Made by a program: the position numbers and the translations under genes. Source: a virus (taxonomy: Duplodnaviria; Heunggongvirae; Uroviricota; Caudoviricetes). Taken from it: DNA of 17,319 bases. The stretch lies in the IMG/VR virus record IMGVR_UViG_2547132281_000005; one strand, written 5' to 3'. Shown here piece after piece: positions 1,969 through 13,146 of this stretch; positions within the stretch are counted from its first letter, which is position 1; each line of letters starts with the position of its first letter. A model generated the notes under the pieces. The model saw nothing but the letters and a program-made list of their open reading frames with translations, had not been told where the DNA came from and made no database searches.

Positions 1969-2185
1969 CAACCGCAGCACGTTCTTGCTTAAGACGAGCT
2001 GCGGCATAATCCCAATGATTACTCCCTGACAGGGTTCGTAGGCCACTCAATATCAGGTGCAGTTGATGTATCAACACGGTTCAGCAACACCCGATACTTT
2101 TTCCAGGCTTCCAGCAATGAGGTTTCTTCCTCCGTTGCAATTTCCAGATCTGCAGCATCCTGAAGCGGCGCAATATGCTCACTGG
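1969..2185. repeat. Direct repeat copy B (tfa 3' end plus downstream hairpin)
   Basis: Partner of 919-1135; contains hairpin 1972-2004 immediately after the convergent stops of the methyltransferase and tfa. Confidence 0.7.
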
Positions 2186-2603
2186 CTACCTGCATCAGGT
2201 TGTTTTTTGTTTCTTCCGCCTCCCGGATCCGGAACAGTTTTTCTGCTTCCGTATCCTTCACCCAGGCTGTGCCGTTCCACTTCTGAAACTCCCCTTCCGG
2301 CGATAACCAGGTAACATTTTCCGGTAACGGACCGAGTTCAGAAATAAATAACTCGTCCCCTGACGCTACGTCATAAACCGTTTTACCCCGATGGTCTTCA
2401 ACGAGATGCCACGATGCCTCATCACTGTTGAAAACAGCCACAAAGCCAGCAGGAATATCTGGTGGTGCAATATCGGTACTGTTTGCTGGCAGACCTGTAT
2501 GAGGCGGAATATATGCGTCACCTTCACCAATAAATTCATTAGTTCCGGCCAGCAGATTATAAATTTTTATGGTCCGTGCTTGTTCACTCATTCTGAATGC
2601 CAT
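2019..2603 (-). CDS. tfa: Tail fibre assembly protein Tfa (194 aa)
   Basis: Same length as lambda Tfa (194 aa) and conserved Tfa C-terminal block. Its ATG (2603-2601) overlaps the stop of the upstream fibre ORF in a TAATG arrangement, as in the lambda stf-tfa pair. Confidence 0.85.
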
Positions 2604-4112: not shown

Positions 4113-4268
4113 TTACTCCTCAGGTTCGTAAGCTGTGAAGACAGCGACCTCCGTCTGGCCGGTTCGGATTCGTACCTCGCAGAGGTCTTTCCTCGTTACC
4201 AGTGCCGTCACTATGACGGTTAAACAGATGACGATCAGGGCGATTAGCATCGCCTTTTGCTGCTTCAT
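4113..4268 (-). CDS. hok: Hok/Gef family type I toxin (51 aa)
   Basis: MKQQKAMLIALIVICLTVIVTALVTRKDLCEVRIRTGQTEVAVFTAYEPEE closely matches the Hok/Gef family as I recall it. ATG at 4268 preceded by GGAGA; stop TAA at 4113-4115. Confidence 0.85.
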   Translation of the reverse strand: MKQQKAMLIALIVICLTVIVTALVTRKDLCEVRIRTGQTEVAVFTAYEPEE

Positions 4269-4325
4269 AGCCTGCTTCTCCTTGCCTTTCGGCACGTAAG
4301 AGGCTAACCTACGTGTGTAGAGCAT
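4113..4325 (-). CDS. mok: Mok (modulator of killing) reading frame, in-frame N-terminal extension of hok
   Basis: 70-aa ORF sharing the stop and frame with hok, as in chromosomal mokC/hokC. Confidence 0.55.
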   Translation of the reverse strand: MLYTRRLASYVPKGKEKQAMKQQKAMLIALIVICLTVIVTALVTRKDLCEVRIRTGQTEVAVFTAYEPEE

Positions 4326-4370
4326 AGGTATGGCCTCAGATTAATGTTAAGCGTCTTGCCGGACGCGTAA
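4295..4370 (+). ncRNA. sok: Putative Sok-like antisense RNA (position inferred, boundaries approximate)
   Basis: Inferred from hok/sok organisation: the antisense RNA should overlap the mok initiation region. A plus-strand hairpin GCGTC-ttgccg-GACGC lies at 4351-4366 but lacks a clean U-run, so the end is uncertain. Confidence 0.25.
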
Positions 4371-4443
4371 TGTTAACTGGGGCTTTTCTCTATCTGCCTT
4401 TGGTGTTGATGCCCGAGGCAGATAGCCTCAAGCACCCGCAGCA

Positions 4444-5326: not shown

Positions 5327-6521
<1,195 letters not shown>

Positions 6522-6911
6522 TTAGCAAAAATTGCAGGCGTTACGAGAAAATTAACTACTGATGAATCTCACAAGGTAATGAGTAAACTGTATTACCCAG
6601 AAGTTAAAGAGTTAAAAGACAAACATTACGTTGAACTTTTCTGGAACAAAGTTTATTACTTTTGGGTTTTCTTTGAACATACAGTAATCGCATTTGTTAC
6701 TATTTTAATAATAAGTATCGCCAAATTAACAAATATATTCTCTGTTACTGGCTCTTTAATTAATCTTTGGTTGTGGATTATTTCTCTTGTCGCATTTGAC
6801 TTCCTTATTTTCATAGCATCAGTTAAACCAAGAACAGAAAGCCAAGTAAGACAAATACCTGATAGCAAAATAAAAGAATTCTTTAACAATAACAATATTT
6901 TTTAAACGAGG

Positions 6912-7571
6912 TTGATTTTGAATTACAAAATAAATGGAATAAACATACGTTCAGAAAATGCAGCGAAACCGCACACTATGCCATCTAACTATCTCTGTAA
7001 ACAGATTGAAAGCACTAATAAAAATGGCAATGCCCTTGATTTTGGATGTGGAAAACTTAGATATTCAGAACAATTAGTAAATAAATTTGAAACTGTGACA
7101 TTTTTAGATTCCAGAAGACAACTAGAAAGAGTGCAAATTATCAGAGGTGTACAAACCACGATTCCAGATTACGTGATAAATAACTATAAGAATGCTAATA
7201 TTGTTTCTTATGAAAATATAGATAAAATAACAAATCATTATGATTTCATACTTTGCGCAAACGTGCTTTCCGCAATTCCATGTGAATCCACAATTCACAA
7301 AGTCCTCAGTGCGATTAGAGAATTATTAAAGAGTGATGGTGAAGCACTGATTGTCAATCAATACAAAAGTTCTTATTTCAAGAGGTACGAGAGCGGTATT
7401 AAACATTTGCATGGGTATATATACCAAAACTCTCGTAATGCTTTCTACTATGGTTTATTAGATGTGGATACTGTAAGTAAAATATGCTCAGATAATAATT
7501 TAGAAATAATAAAATCATGGAGCAAAGCAGGTAGTTCATATGTGGTTGTTGGTAAACATATACATATTTAG
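6912..7571 (+). CDS. TehB-like class I SAM-dependent methyltransferase (about 217-219 aa)
   Basis: Motif I ALDFGCGKL, acidic LDSR, YDFILCANVLSAIP and LKSDGEALIV blocks resemble TehB-type methyltransferases. Likely start is TTG 6918 (GAGG 6908-6911, 6-nt spacer) or TTG 6912; begins 7 nt after the membrane-protein stop. Confidence 0.7.
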   Translation: MILNYKINGINIRSENAAKPHTMPSNYLCKQIESTNKNGNALDFGCGKLRYSEQLVNKFETVTFLDSRRQLERVQIIRGVQTTIPDYVINNYKNANIVSYENIDKITNHYDFILCANVLSAIPCESTIHKVLSAIRELLKSDGEALIVNQYKSSYFKRYESGIKHLHGYIYQNSRNAFYYGLLDVDTVSKICSDNNLEIIKSWSKAGSSYVVVGKHIHI

Positions 7572-7885
7572 TTTATTTCAACAAATTATTAGAAAGAGTG
7601 ATTTGCTTGTTAATTATTAGCTCGGCAGTGCCGGATCAACATGACCCTGCCACTTAGGCCATTGCCGGTTTACCTACTTTTGTAAGGTTCAGCATGAAGT
7701 TTTTATATACTCTTCCTAATATCAATAGTGATGCTCGCTTATGTTAGCTGCTTCTTGTACATAGTAGCCTTCTCCGACAGTACTGCAATGAGCGGAGAGT
7801 AAAAGTCGATAAACAATAAGGAGGTTCACAATAAATATTTCTCGGTGAAACTTTCAAAGCATTCTCTGTTTTGCTAAATCGACAA

Positions 7886-8785
7886 TTATAAATCAACAAC
7901 ATTTAGTGTTATATCAATATTATTTAGCCTTGCAATCTCTGATGAATCACTTGCTATTTTAGCTTTTAATTTATCAATATTAATCATATCTTCATGGCTT
8001 ATATAAACCATATCACCTTGGTTAACTTTAGATTTGTTCACTATGGCTTGAATAACAGACAAATCATCCATTACACCTCTCATAAATTTCACCATGCTTT
8101 GATCTTTGAAGTCAGATATCGATTTTGAGCGTTGCTTACGTTGAATTGTTCCTTTTGTAATTACTTCATTAATTTCTTTTAAACCAGTGAGCATATCAGA
8201 CAGACTGCCTTCGCAACTCATCCGATGTTTTATTGCATTGCGATTAATAATATTGAGTATAATTTCGAGTGAATCTTTATCACTCCATGGATGTAATGAT
8301 GTATAATCATGATGGCGTCGAATGGCGTCAATCATATCCTGGACCATATCTTCATCTGCTTTATCGCAAAGTTCATTCACGAAATAGCTGGGGTCGATTA
8401 TTTTACAATAACTTGGAGTTAGGTATCTTGAGGCTTTACAAAAACCAAAAATATATAAAGTAGAGTATTTATCTTTCAGACTCTCTCCTATTTCATTTGT
8501 TTCCTCAAAAGATTCGATAGTTTTTTTAATTTTTGCTGGACTTGCATTCGTAGTAACTTGAACTGCTATCATGTTTTTATTATCAGCTAAATCAATGGCG
8601 GGAAAATTAACTTTAATCTGATTCATGTTTACCAGTTCACCCATTTTCAGCGCGCGAAACATAAAGATGGTCAATGACTCAATTATTCTTTCCATGTCAT
8701 GAAAGCCTGCCTGTTTGCGTTGCGCGATATAAAGCTGGAGTAGTGCAATATCACTCTGTAAGTTTCTAATAAGTGGATCAATCAT
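7886..8785 (-). CDS. Hypothetical 299-aa protein, AT-rich orphan (candidate defence/abortive-infection gene)
   Basis: ATG at 8785 with AGGA upstream; long uninterrupted ORF, convergent with the methyltransferase. No recognisable catalytic motif (no HExxH, no Walker A, no TM segments). Confidence 0.7.
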   Translation of the reverse strand: MIDPLIRNLQSDIALLQLYIAQRKQAGFHDMERIIESLTIFMFRALKMGELVNMNQIKVNFPAIDLADNKNMIAVQVTTNASPAKIKKTIESFEETNEIGESLKDKYSTLYIFGFCKASRYLTPSYCKIIDPSYFVNELCDKADEDMVQDMIDAIRRHHDYTSLHPWSDKDSLEIILNIINRNAIKHRMSCEGSLSDMLTGLKEINEVITKGTIQRKQRSKSISDFKDQSMVKFMRGVMDDLSVIQAIVNKSKVNQGDMVYISHEDMINIDKLKAKIASDSSEIARLNNIDITLNVVDL

Positions 8786-9037
8786 AGCTAATAATCCTTT
8801 TCAATGAAGCTGGAGGTGTGTTTAACTATTAGTTAAATTTCTATTTTTATAGAAACAAGCTTTACAACTTCATCAAAGTTTCTCAAATCCTAATCCACTT
8901 TGCAAATCCACTAACCATGCTGAATGCTTTCTGTTGTTAAACATATCCGCTGCTGGCACCAAGCAGACAAACACACTAACTCTACCCTACTCCACAAAAG
9001 AGCCAATCAATATCTGAACTAATAAACTTTAATCTCA

Positions 9038-11728: not shown

Positions 11729-11780
11729 TTGAGTTTTCTCATCAAAAAACCTTGACGAAAAATAATGAGAAAACTAAATT
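11729..11780 (+). promoter_or_regulatory. Candidate early-left promoter flanked by operator half-sites
   Basis: TTGACG (11752-11757), 17-nt spacer, TAAATT (11775-11780), bracketed by the inverted repeat TTGAGTTTTCTCAT (11729-11742) / ATGAGAAAACT (11765-11775). Confidence 0.4.
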
Positions 11781-12171: not shown

Positions 12172-12390
12172 ATGCAGAAACGAGAACCCGTCATCATCGC
12201 GCCAGACTATACCGATGATGAACTTTATGAGTGGATGCACCAGAAAATTAATGCAGCGCAGGATCTGAAATGGGCCAATGAAGCCAGGGCTAAGCAGGCT
12301 GAAAATCTGTCCGCTCTGGAGCAGGATATCACTAATCTGGAAAAAGCAGCGGCATTAAGCATTGCCAGAATGATTACATACCCGCGTTAA
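12172..12390 (+). CDS. Hypothetical 72-aa protein
   Basis: ATG 12172 with GAGGAA 5 nt upstream; stop TAA 12388-12390. Confidence 0.6.
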   Translation: MQKREPVIIAPDYTDDELYEWMHQKINAAQDLKWANEARAKQAENLSALEQDITNLEKAAALSIARMITYPR

Positions 12391-12393
12391 TAG

Positions 12394-12791
12394 CTAACCA
12401 ACGAAGCTAAGGTTGGTAATTAAGGAGTTCTCCACGGATGAGGTGGAGTGCGTGCGCCGGACACGGGTGAGCATCCGGCACAGACAGTTTACTGAAAGGA
12501 TATTTCCCTGAAAGGTCAGACCATAACGCGAAAGCGCACGGCGAGGTAGCTGGTTCATAGATAGCCTGTCGTTAAATTTTCGTCGACCGTGCGCTTCCGG
12601 TTGTGGCAATCCGCGAAATGGCGCGGCGGTGAGTATGGCGGGGTTATTCCTTCCCCGTTGAGGACACCGGGTTGTCAGGTTGACCATACGCTTAAGTGAC
12701 AACCCCGCTGCAACGCCCTCTGTTATCAATTTTCTGGTGACGTTTGGCGGTATCAGTTTTACTCCGTGACTGCTCTGCCGCCCTTTTTAAA
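12394..12791 (+). ncRNA. GC-rich structured non-coding region (candidate ncRNA or structured leader), strand assumed from the flanking operon
   Basis: No plausible ORF on either strand. Consecutive perfect stems: ACCAAC/GTTGGT (12397-12417), CTCCAC/GTGGAG (12430-12448), GCCGGA/TCCGGC (12456-12479), CGC-GAAA-GCG (12527-12536), GCGCACGG/CCGTGCGC (12534-12594), CCGCG/CGCGG (12611-12626), CGGGG/CCCCG (12639-12657), GGGTTGTCA/TGACAACCC (12669-12705), and GGCGG...CCGCC followed by CTTTTT (12746-12788). Confidence 0.3.
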
Positions 12792-12795
12792 GTGA

Positions 12796-12937
12796 ATTTT
12801 GTGATGCGGTGAATGCGGCTGAGCGCACGCGGAACAGTTAAAACCAAAAACAGTGTTATGGGTGGATTCTCTGTATCCGGCGTTAATTGTTAACTGGTTA
12901 ACGTCACCTGGAAGCACCAGGCACCGCATCACAAAAT
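12796..12937. repeat. Perfect 16-bp inverted repeat pair bracketing about 110 bp
   Basis: ATTTTGTGATGCGGTG (12796-12811) and its exact reverse complement CACCGCATCACAAAAT (12922-12937); interior carries GTTAAC-tg-GTTAAC palindromic sites. Confidence 0.5.
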
Positions 12938-12957
12938 TCATTGTTGAGGACGCGATA

Positions 12958-13146
12958 ATGGAAACGTTATTACCAAACGTTAATACGTCTGAAGGTTGTT
13001 TTGAAATTGGTGTCACTATCAGTAACCCTGTATTTACTGAAGATGCCATTAACAAGAGAAAACACGAACGGGAGCTATTAAATAAAATATGCATTCTTTC
13101 AATGTTGGCCCGTTTACGTCCGATACAAAAAGGATGCTGGCAATGA
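12958..13146 (+). CDS. Hypothetical 62-aa protein
   Basis: ATG 12958 with GAGGA 7 nt upstream; its stop TGA (13144-13146) overlaps the next ATG in an ATGA arrangement. Confidence 0.45.
   Translation: METLLPNVNTSEGCFEIGVTISNPVFTEDAINKRKHERELLNKICILSMLARLRPIQKGCWQ

Follow-up and report, generated by a model that had tools for sequence, protein, structure and literature searches.

Introduction

DicF is among the oldest known bacterial small RNAs (sRNAs), and in Escherichia coli K-12 it represses ftsZ and other mRNAs together with Hfq; the sequence that precedes it has so far been treated as spacer. Here we examine positions 12,394 to 12,791 of a 17,319-nt Caudoviricetes sequence (IMG/VR record IMGVR_UViG_2547132281_000005; this whole stretch is referred to below as the window), which carries the same arrangement. 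Within it we describe a 115-nt covarying junction RNA at 12600–12714, hereafter the core, that lies upstream of DicF, recurs in enterobacterial prophages and P1-like phages, and may influence transcription past the terminator that follows it.

The untranslated region of the dicBF operon has long been known, and its 190-nt and 53-nt products have been mapped experimentally (PMC10448788, PMC5069750). The 5′ end of the 53-nt DicF species is made by RNase E and that of the 190-nt species by RNase III, both species accumulate in stationary phase, and an internal promoter was not found (PMC10448788). The 190-nt species increases when RNase E is inactivated and is gone without RNase III, whose cut was published as lying 'between positions 813 and 814' (PMC10448788). 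A 72-nt DicF species has also been described (PMC5069750).

Outside this operon, the systems closest to what we propose are RNA elements that act on the transcribing polymerase. The put sites of phage HK022, putL and putR, are cis-acting, protein-independent antiterminator RNAs that bind the beta′ zinc-binding domain of RNA polymerase. In the Bacillales, the eps-associated RNA (EAR), reportedly described by Irnov and Winkler in 2010, is said to be an intra-operon structured RNA that promotes read-through of distal terminators.

Results

A conserved junction RNA within the dicBF leader

The whole window is a lambdoid, Qin-like prophage adjoining ompW. It matches E. coli 14EC017 with 100% identity, its gene order is that of the K-12 cryptic prophage Qin (dicA-like repressor, ydfA, ydfB, ydfC, a 340-nt gap, dicF, dicB, ydfD, exonuclease VIII, xis, int), and Pfam recognises DicB, YdfA (DUF1391) and YdfD (DUF1482). 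DicF is placed at 12732–12783 by Rfam RF00039 (76.7 bits against a gathering score of 48, covering model positions 1–52 of 52) and at 12731–12783 by the mapped K-12 annotation. By annotation and the DicB Pfam match it lies between ydfC and dicB of the lambdoid prophage, in a dicBF-type operon, and the spacer is 97% identical to its counterpart in MC4100, a K-12 derivative. Because the DicF match, the gene order shared with K-12 Qin and 14EC017, the Pfam matches and the literature on the 190-nt and 53-nt species all agree, 12394–12791 is the untranslated leader that separates ydfC from dicB in the dicBF operon. That identity is settled, and the dicBF leader, DicF and its precursor are already known. 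The new part is the core, a 115-nt covarying junction RNA without an Rfam family.

Folded alone, 12597–12790 has a minimum free energy (MFE) structure in which the core forms a four-way junction of P0, P1, P2a–P2 and P3. An RNAalifold consensus, a form of check proposed in a first-pass annotation of the stretch, independently yields helices P1, P2a, P2 and P3. The helices and the pseudoknot are placed as follows.

P0, closing stem: 12600–12607 / 12707–12714
Helix P1: 12611–12615 / 12622–12626
P2a: 12628–12630 / 12666–12668
P2, variable arm: 12639–12643 / 12653–12657
P3, a perfect 9-bp stem: 12669–12677 / 12697–12705
Pseudoknot, GTATGG/CCATAC: 12633–12638 (P2a/P2 internal loop) / 12684–12689 (P3 loop)

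Pair covariation supports this fold in two alignments. A first set, a MAFFT alignment of 22 sequences sharing less than 95% identity, has 93.9% of its cells paired and 10 covarying pairs, against 3.1 ± 1.3 in shuffled alignments (0 of 500 reach the observed number) and 0–2 when the 3′ partners are slid. A model-based set of 78 distinct sequences, which was fitted to the model and so leans towards it, has 96.4% of cells paired and 12 covarying pairs against 4.9 ± 1.4 (0 of 500 shuffles) and 0–3 in the slid controls, and the MAFFT result agrees with it. The 12 pairs are distributed over P3 (6), P0 (2), P2 (2), P2a (1) and the pseudoknot (1). At two adjacent P0 positions the commonest pairs among the 78 sequences are G·U or U·G wobbles, which argues that the plus-strand RNA is the folded molecule.

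The pattern of conservation is equally structured. Of 22 distinct versions of P2, 19 form a hairpin, and a six-locus alignment contains two nearly invariant blocks around a hairpin whose sequence changes, whose pairing is kept and whose length differs by numbers that are not multiples of three. Approximately 40 positions, many of them unpaired, are invariant across the phage P1, lambdoid and Erwinia/Izhakiella versions. No Rfam family matched the core at E ≤ 10 when 12300–12960 was searched, where the matches were DicF, STnc100 and two chance matches outside or antisense to the core, and none matched it at E ≤ 0.01 in four other lineages. The first-pass annotation had recognised no named RNA family in the stretch, a view that stands for the core and falls for the 3′ end, which is DicF. 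The check that it proposed, covariation across homologous prophages, supports stems in the 115-nt core at 12600–12714 and gives none for the first ~200 nt.

Distribution of the core

Among 5,426 complete E. coli genomes, 4,417 (~80%) carry the core, with 9,462 copies in total, and 4,011 carry DicF, with 7,242 copies. Plasmids carry 506 of the core copies, in a version that matches that of phage P1, and Rfam finds no DicF at the phage P1 core locus. As a module the core stands apart from DicF and is both older and more widespread.

In BLAST searches against phage genomes, only ~120 nt (window 12600–12722) recur beyond close relatives. The phages that bear the core, always in early-operon orientation, are cdtI, Stx2c-converting phages, Salmonella F1055, pPE4 (deposited as Actinobacillus), P1, P7 and other P1-like phages, and pattern scans add ~120 IMG/VR contigs. 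The surroundings of the core in pPE4 are almost identical to those in E. coli prophages, so the stated Actinobacillus host may be doubtful. The core also occurs in prophages of Escherichia albertii, E. ruysiae, Shigella, Citrobacter, Trabulsiella, Erwinia, Izhakiella and Serratia symbiotica, and all true matches in a scan of species-representative genomes are Enterobacterales or P1-like. High-GC matches outside the Enterobacterales (Halomonas, Solirubrobacterales, Flavonifractor and others) were rejected as coincidences in coding genes, arising from the reverse complement ATG GTC AAC CTG. Separately, metagenome-assembled genomes labelled Veillonella parvula, Collinsella and Bacillota (loci L183, L190 and L175) contain core copies identical to the E. 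coli Qin type or the P1 type, which probably reflect bin contamination.

Annotation has largely passed over both RNAs: 28 of 30 sampled RefSeq records have no feature over the core, with an occasional hypothetical protein, and the Prokaryotic Genome Annotation Pipeline (PGAP) leaves DicF unannotated in most genomes.

The core precedes a terminator in early operons

A scan finds an intrinsic terminator 40–125 nt downstream of the core in 20 of 24 representative lineages. In Erwinia and Izhakiella a GGCGG...CCGCC stem with a U-run can be seen by eye, and the Shigella L172 version looks degenerate. The lambdoid terminators share a conserved base, UUUGGCGG...CCGCCCUUUUU, and differ in their upper stem and loop; DicF is one allele of this variable-top terminator. 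Past the terminator follow a second long hairpin and then lineage-specific cargo, which includes DicB, Kil, an unknown phrog_204 protein, xis/int, Rha/Ant-like regulators, a PAPS-reductase-like protein and, in phage P1, tRNAs.

The gene context is conserved on one side. The recurrent same-strand neighbours are cI/DicA-type repressors, upstream only, and the core follows the repressor gene in the cdtI, Stx2c, Salmonella F1055 and pPE4 lineages. On the downstream side the first gene varies between lineages, and no conserved protein partner was found beside the core. In phage P1 the core starts ~50 nt past the C1-controlled Pban, and the terminator directly after it is the only plus-strand terminator between Pban and ban, 2.6 kb away.

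Several lineages show local variations on this arrangement. In the Erwinia, Salmonella F1055, Trabulsiella, Izhakiella and Serratia lineages, though not in that of the window, the terminator hairpin encloses the Shine-Dalgarno sequence and start codon of a 36–44 aa open reading frame (ORF), MFYRGTA(L/F)FTQQ... (L198 4713–4823, L006 ~2680–2812, also L164, L191 and L200). The first codons of this ORF are the terminator 3′ strand and U-run, three of the five Salmonella–Erwinia differences are synonymous, and the product could be a leader peptide coupled to termination. The linker and DicF-like terminator module are tandemly duplicated past the core in the pPE4 phage (L005 2600–2800). In Citrobacter sp. 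FP75 (L186 1400–2350) excisionase and integrase genes come immediately after the core and terminator, so the core can precede a very short left operon, an arrangement that hints at xis/int gating in some prophages.

Architecture of the leader and placement of the 190-nt precursor

The leader has four parts: lineage-specific hairpins, an RNase III hairpin, the conserved junction RNA, and then a linker and DicF with its terminator. These parts and their neighbours are listed below.

11752–11780, plus strand: sigma70-like promoter, the best candidate for the operon (dicBp equivalent); TTGACG-17-TAAATT, 9/12, predicted start ~11787
12172–12390, plus strand: ydfC, 72 aa, the last ORF ahead of the leader (RefSeq annotation of the identical locus; K-12 Qin)
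12394–12520, plus strand: lineage-specific 5′ module with small hairpins (12397–12417, 12430–12448, 12453–12482 and others), from folding and inverted repeats
12521–12606, plus strand: long imperfect hairpin, probable RNase III substrate (MFE fold, inverted repeat, two counts to the published 5′ end)
12600–12714, plus strand: conserved core, four-way junction and pseudoknot (MFE, RNAalifold, pair covariation)
12715–12742, plus strand: linker and small hairpin (12721–12728/12735–12742), from the fold of 12597–12790
12731–12788, plus strand: DicF sRNA (12731–12783, 53 nt) with terminator stem and U-run 12784–12788 (Rfam RF00039, K-12 annotation, fold)
12793–12940, plus strand: long post-DicF hairpin with 28-nt arms (inverted repeat, fold), in the same leader and beyond the 12394–12791 stretch
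12958–13146, plus strand: dicB, the first gene past the leader (Pfam PF05358 (DicB), 1.7e-37; annotation)

The terminal GC stem and CTTTTT noted in the first-pass annotation are a real intrinsic terminator, that of DicF: GGCGG at 12746–12750 pairs with CCGCC at 12778–12782, TTTTT follows at 12784–12788, and the terminator fold has an energy of -15.9 kcal/mol. A simple terminator scan misses it because of an internal loop, and the assignment rests on Rfam, folding and the literature.

Two counts place the 5′ end of the published 190-nt species at the edge of the core. Counting 190 nt back from the terminator leads to 12594–12599, and counting the 813/814 cut from the predicted start at ~11787 leads to 12599/12600, with P0 beginning directly after the cut. 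The counts are mutually consistent, 813 + 190 = 1003 being approximately the distance from start to terminator. The mapping is a consistency argument, as the start site is itself predicted from promoter-like sequence. Because both counts put its 5′ end at the P0 edge, the published 190-nt RNA would correspond to the junction plus DicF, with its placement on the window bases read from the sequence. In the predicted fold a linker hairpin holds the mature DicF 5′ end (12731) in an A/U-rich loop, and its stem pairs the first DicF bases to the linker; this loop is the modelled RNase E site.

The region between DicF and dicB holds two further observations. The hairpin at 12793–12940, whose arms are 86% complementary, fills the dicF–dicB spacer and matches Rfam STnc100 at 38.4 bits, below the gathering score of 47; sub-threshold STnc100 matches also occur past the terminator in the pPE4 phage and upstream of tciA in phage P1. 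It is probably a second RNase III site yielding the 72-nt DicF. The dicB ribosome-binding site is GUUGAGGAC at 12943–12951, a 9-mer that occurs exactly twice in the 17-kb window (expected 0.12), the other copy lying in the P2–P2a linker of the core at 12657–12665. The P2 loop (UUCCUU), which is rich in pyrimidines, is complementary to GAGGA, and both chance and a cis interaction are possible.

The upstream module and the probable RNase III hairpin

The sequence ahead of the core, 12394–12599, behaves as a separate mosaic block, with 5′ truncations at query positions 18, 40, 58 and 129–132 among E. coli copies. Most of the upstream module and the next hairpin (window ~12411–12605) are found without the core in phage phiSTEC1589-Stx1c. 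This N-bearing phage (L209 1672–1710) has the upstream module and a 39-nt match to both core flanks with the core missing, as if the core had been cleanly deleted or never inserted, which makes it a natural comparator for loci that carry the core.

The hairpin at 12521–12606 has an MFE of -37.4 kcal/mol (z -2.46) and is a probable RNase III substrate; its 3′ strand includes GUUGUGG (12600–12606), bases that P0 also uses for its 5′ strand. A 13-nt duplex at 12529–12541/12587–12599 falls in this part of the leader. Among 33 close relatives, a sample of low power, the hairpins of 12394–12599 show one-sided substitutions and no compensatory change, and the upstream hairpins other than the RNase III hairpin, for which there is experimental backing, are modelled from thermodynamics alone. 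The stems listed in the first-pass annotation are all present in series as inverted repeats. The GNRA-type CGC-GAAA-GCG hairpin that it singled out was not upheld, as this element shows no compensatory change and its GAAA segment falls in a long RNase III-type duplex in the best fold.

A boxA-like motif lies directly 5′ of P0 (1–2 nt away, ~12 nt ahead of the helix P1 hairpin) in many lambdoid versions, and is clearer in L191, L006, L198 and L200. Its form is UGCUCU(C/U)U in many lineages, UGCUCUUU in Trabulsiella and GUGCUCUCU in others; the window copy (~12589–12597) is degenerate, GUGCGCUU, and the phage P1 and L062-type versions are without it. The Trabulsiella form is identical to the first 8 nt of the rrn boxA.

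Composition, folding energy and coding potential

The stretch is richer in GC than its neighbours, as the first-pass annotation had stated (0.553 at 12451–12750 against 0.48–0.50 upstream and 0.41–0.43 downstream), and it folds better than expected from its composition. The 341 nt at 12391–12731 fold at -127.3 kcal/mol against -112.8 ± 5.5 in dinucleotide shuffles (z -2.64; 0 of 100 as good), and the full 570-nt ydfC–dicB spacer has a folding z of -4.40. The reverse strand also folds well (z -3.86), so folding energy alone does not tell the functional strand.

No coding signal accompanies this structure. Across 33 full-length homologs there is no conserved frame and no third-position excess anywhere in the stretch: variable sites are spread evenly over the codon phases (17/18/13 in the upstream part, 7/5/5 in the core), and the sole long stop-free stretch, on the minus strand, shifts frame in approximately one third of the homologs. 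In 14EC017, PGAP/RefSeq places a 97-aa minus-strand hypothetical protein, WP_064772786.1, over 12394–12687, which includes much of the core; it is almost certainly spurious. ARAGORN found no tRNA or tmRNA in the whole window. The view of the first-pass annotation that this is a structured, processed RNA inside the early-left operon and not a decayed gene is borne out.

Other features of the window

Elsewhere, the window has Rfam gathering-level matches to the sok antitoxin RNA (4263–4437, minus strand), beside hokD, and to IS009 (2062–2260, minus strand), within an IS66-family element. Between hokD and the replication genes lies a low-GC island (0.28–0.37; ~6200–8800) that encodes a hypothetical protein, a class I SAM-dependent methyltransferase and a SMEK-domain protein by the 14EC017 annotation, and looks like moron or defence-type cargo.

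Discussion

The structure and setting of the core provide a framework for considering how it might act. We tentatively favour, at somewhat less than even confidence, a reading in which the core controls transcription in cis through the terminator and leader coupled to it. An antitermination RNA was also among the candidates listed in the first-pass annotation. The evidence is circumstantial: the core sits ahead of the first terminator at the heads of repressor-controlled early operons, no N-type gene was detected where lambdoid phages carry one, the N-bearing relative phiSTEC1589 keeps the flanks and lacks the core, and many lineages have a boxA-like motif upstream. The core would act in cis on the transcribing complex or on the nascent RNA and would determine what share of transcription gets beyond the terminator and the long untranslated leader, as an RNA-based antitermination or anti-polarity device analogous, and not homologous, to HK022 put or Bacillus EAR. 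A structured, untranslated, G-rich leader would otherwise be exposed to Rho. The leader is richer in G than in C (skew +0.08 to +0.11), and an excess of G over C is unfavourable for Rho loading.

Processing could be joined to this scheme at several steps. RNase III would cut the operon transcript at ~12599/12600, and this cut may remove the strand that competes with P0 and free GUUGUGG for P0 pairing. The remaining 190-nt RNA would consist of the junction and DicF, and RNase E could then cut in the loop of the linker hairpin to give the 53-nt DicF. Terminated transcripts would in this way give rise to stable core-plus-sRNA species, and polymerases that pass the DicF terminator would reach dicB. 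A broader version of the proposal is that the junction belongs to a class of phage RNA not described before, one that regulates in cis through host RNA polymerase, Rho or Nus factors. With it, temperate enterobacterial phages lacking N, including the ban operon of phage P1, would read through the terminator and long untranslated leader with which their early operons begin, DicF-type sRNAs being a by-product of the terminated fraction. We regard this generalisation as possible and rather doubtful.

Several points weigh against transcriptional control by the core. Its effect on termination is a prediction. The argument from N depends on a failure of detection, by Pfam and PHROGs around 19 diverse core loci (with the top 25 of 141 PHROG families listed), and the anticorrelation with N amounts to that failure together with one N-bearing relative, phiSTEC1589, that is without the core. 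A covariance model of put, the one sequence-defined family of phage antiterminator RNAs that was modelled, built from putL and putR of HK022 with HK639, CobraSix, phiEt88, S9-5 and PdC23, finds all put RNAs (60–102 bits, including an untrained putR at 60.5 bits) and finds nothing in the window or in nine other core loci with filters off at E ≤ 10; the reverse search of the put sites with a covariance model of the core is also empty. The dimensions differ as well, put being ~70 nt with two stems and the core 115 nt with a four-way junction and a pseudoknot. In the Qin lineage the core lies ~800 nt past the promoter, behind three ORFs (ydfABC), although the first terminator still lies beyond it. 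For K-12, the DicF terminator is the inferred end of the major transcript containing ydfA, and a read-through form was seen only when RNase E was inactivated (PMC10448788), so any antitermination would be partial or conditional.

The structural and evolutionary arguments have limits of the same kind. Helix P1 shows one-sided changes and zero compensatory ones and is for this reason unproven, and the pseudoknot is supported by a single covarying position (UA 71, UG 4, CG 3). Because the core is confined to the Enterobacterales and horizontal exchange is frequent, part of its invariance could reflect recent spread. The DicF literature that we found does not mention the conserved fold of the junction, its occurrence without DicF or its wider distribution, and treats the 137 nt 5′ of DicF as precursor or 'long untranslated region'; Faubladier and Bouche 1994 or Lobocka et al. 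2004 may already describe the block.

The explanation that survives best beside cis control is that the junction is a scaffold, a stable 5′ body of the sRNA precursor with no effect on RNA polymerase. We consider it the main rival, only a little less likely than cis control, and the two are not mutually exclusive. Here the paired 5′ end made by RNase III and the compact fold would shield the RNA from 5′-end-dependent RNase E, the linker hairpin would keep the 5′ bases of DicF paired until RNase E releases it, and the core would time or limit the output of DicF and of other terminator-borne sRNAs. The behaviour of the 190-nt species, which accumulates in stationary phase, increases without RNase E and is lost without RNase III, fits this account, as do the coincidence of the RNase III cut with the P0 edge and the predicted pairing of the first DicF bases to the linker. 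A terminator with a conserved base and a variable top is moreover the design expected for interchangeable sRNA modules. For a scaffold, however, shape would suffice, yet ~40 positions, many of them unpaired, do not vary between the versions of phage P1, the lambdoid phages and Erwinia/Izhakiella. The core also outnumbers DicF, the 3′ modules attached to it are unrelated to one another (that of phage P1 is a strong terminator and nothing more), and its generic position at operon heads is left unexplained.

Two further explanations appear improbable. In the first, the core would be a riboswitch-like or factor-sensing attenuator, an aptamer for a host metabolite or protein that gates the terminator and early-left expression. 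The core is indeed built like an aptamer, with a four-way junction, a loop–loop pseudoknot and unpaired bases that do not vary, and an intrinsic terminator comes after it. In some lineages (Izhakiella CACAAC...GUUGUG, the L009 type, by inspection) a second copy of the P0 5′ strand lies downstream and could pair with the P0 3′ strand instead, and DicF builds up in stationary phase. The spacing of core and terminator nevertheless ranges from 40 to 125 nt, with unrelated sequence between them, inspection of the sequences, which was no formal test, revealed no alternative pairing common to all lineages, Rfam gave no riboswitch match, and the heterogeneous gene context suggests no ligand.

In the second, to which we give similarly little credence, the core itself would be the product, a trans-acting RNA such as a decoy or sponge for a host protein or an anti-defence RNA, and the terminator would merely end it. 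In P1 and cdtI-type phages, transcription from the early promoter takes in the core among its first sequences, the RNA formed from the core is stable, and its invariant loops suggest a conserved host partner, with no phage protein partner co-occurring. Set against this, the partner or target is not known, the Qin type is embedded 800 nt into an mRNA and freed only by RNase III, and the pyrimidine-rich P2 loop varies independently of the downstream module, which leaves no obvious base-pairing target.

Descent from the put family is very improbable. The position is analogous, putL lying just past pL, and short motifs recur by eye in the same order (a 5-bp hairpin with an AA..GG loop, a -10-like NANNAT 3–4 nt on, and CGGGUU..CAGG.UGA.C); family membership was rejected despite this resemblance, since the covariance models are empty in both directions, and the local put hairpin GUUC/GAAC is replaced by the 9-bp P3, which has six covarying pairs and excludes it. 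HnrS, a multicopy prophage sRNA of enterohaemorrhagic E. coli, was also considered and is unrelated, being 66 nt long and from the late region. Least credible of all is a decayed or unrecognised protein-coding gene, which we reject despite a 111-aa stop-free minus-strand stretch in the window and the RefSeq hypothetical coding sequence in 14EC017, given codon-phase counts with no third-position excess, a 1-nt indel that breaks the frame in one third of close homologs, P2 lengths that differ between lineages by non-multiples of three, and nearly all other RefSeq records leaving the stretch unannotated.

Whichever account holds, the 'untranslated region' ahead of DicF becomes a discrete, testable element, a covarying, pseudoknotted domain shared with phage P1 and several enterobacterial genera. 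If the core controls read-through, it would explain how lambdoid prophages without N and the ban operon of phage P1 express genes past a strong promoter-proximal terminator, and it would bear on the timing of the toxic dicB, kil and recombination genes of cryptic prophages. Were it to act by antitermination, it would be the third RNA-only processive system after put and EAR, unannotated in ~80% of E. coli genomes. If it is instead a scaffold, it would offer phages a modular way to package interchangeable sRNAs. In either case the core merits an Rfam family and annotation, as its more than 9,000 copies in complete E. coli genomes are almost all unannotated in RefSeq.

Comparison with known systems

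With the DicF system and 190-nt precursor of K-12 Qin, the locus examined here is the same: the 3′ end of the stretch is DicF, and the order ydfA–ydfB–ydfC–spacer–dicF–dicB–ydfD is identical. Part of the core has been annotated before, in the 'dicF-like region' of phage P1 (misc_feature 68791–68892, AF234172), which overlaps the 3′ half of the core and the terminator that follows. This feature shows that the P1 annotators noticed a similarity to the dicF region; it was annotated as similarity only, without structure or function, and the likeness is to the upstream core and not to DicF proper.

Lambda-type nut sites, which combine boxA and boxB with the N protein, occupy the same map position, the core standing where nutL would be, and many core lineages have a boxA-like motif. 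The core is far larger than boxB, the boxA-like motif of the window is degenerate, and an N-type protein was not detected. EAR resembles the core in its size (~120 nt), in being a conserved, structured RNA between genes of a long operon, as in the Qin arrangement, and in its proposed cis action on elongation. It differs in phylum and sequence, and it has no terminator or sRNA immediately following it.

Like the put RNAs, the core is a structured RNA that stands between an early promoter under repressor control and the terminators, in lambdoid phages without an N gene of their own, and the two share nearly invariant unpaired bases and a few short motifs in the same order. The put sites lie at the promoter, whereas the Qin-type core lies inside the operon, in the window ~800 nt downstream and after ydfABC. 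In phage P1 and in phages of the cdtI, Stx2c and F1055 types, the core does lie past the early promoter and ahead of the terminators.

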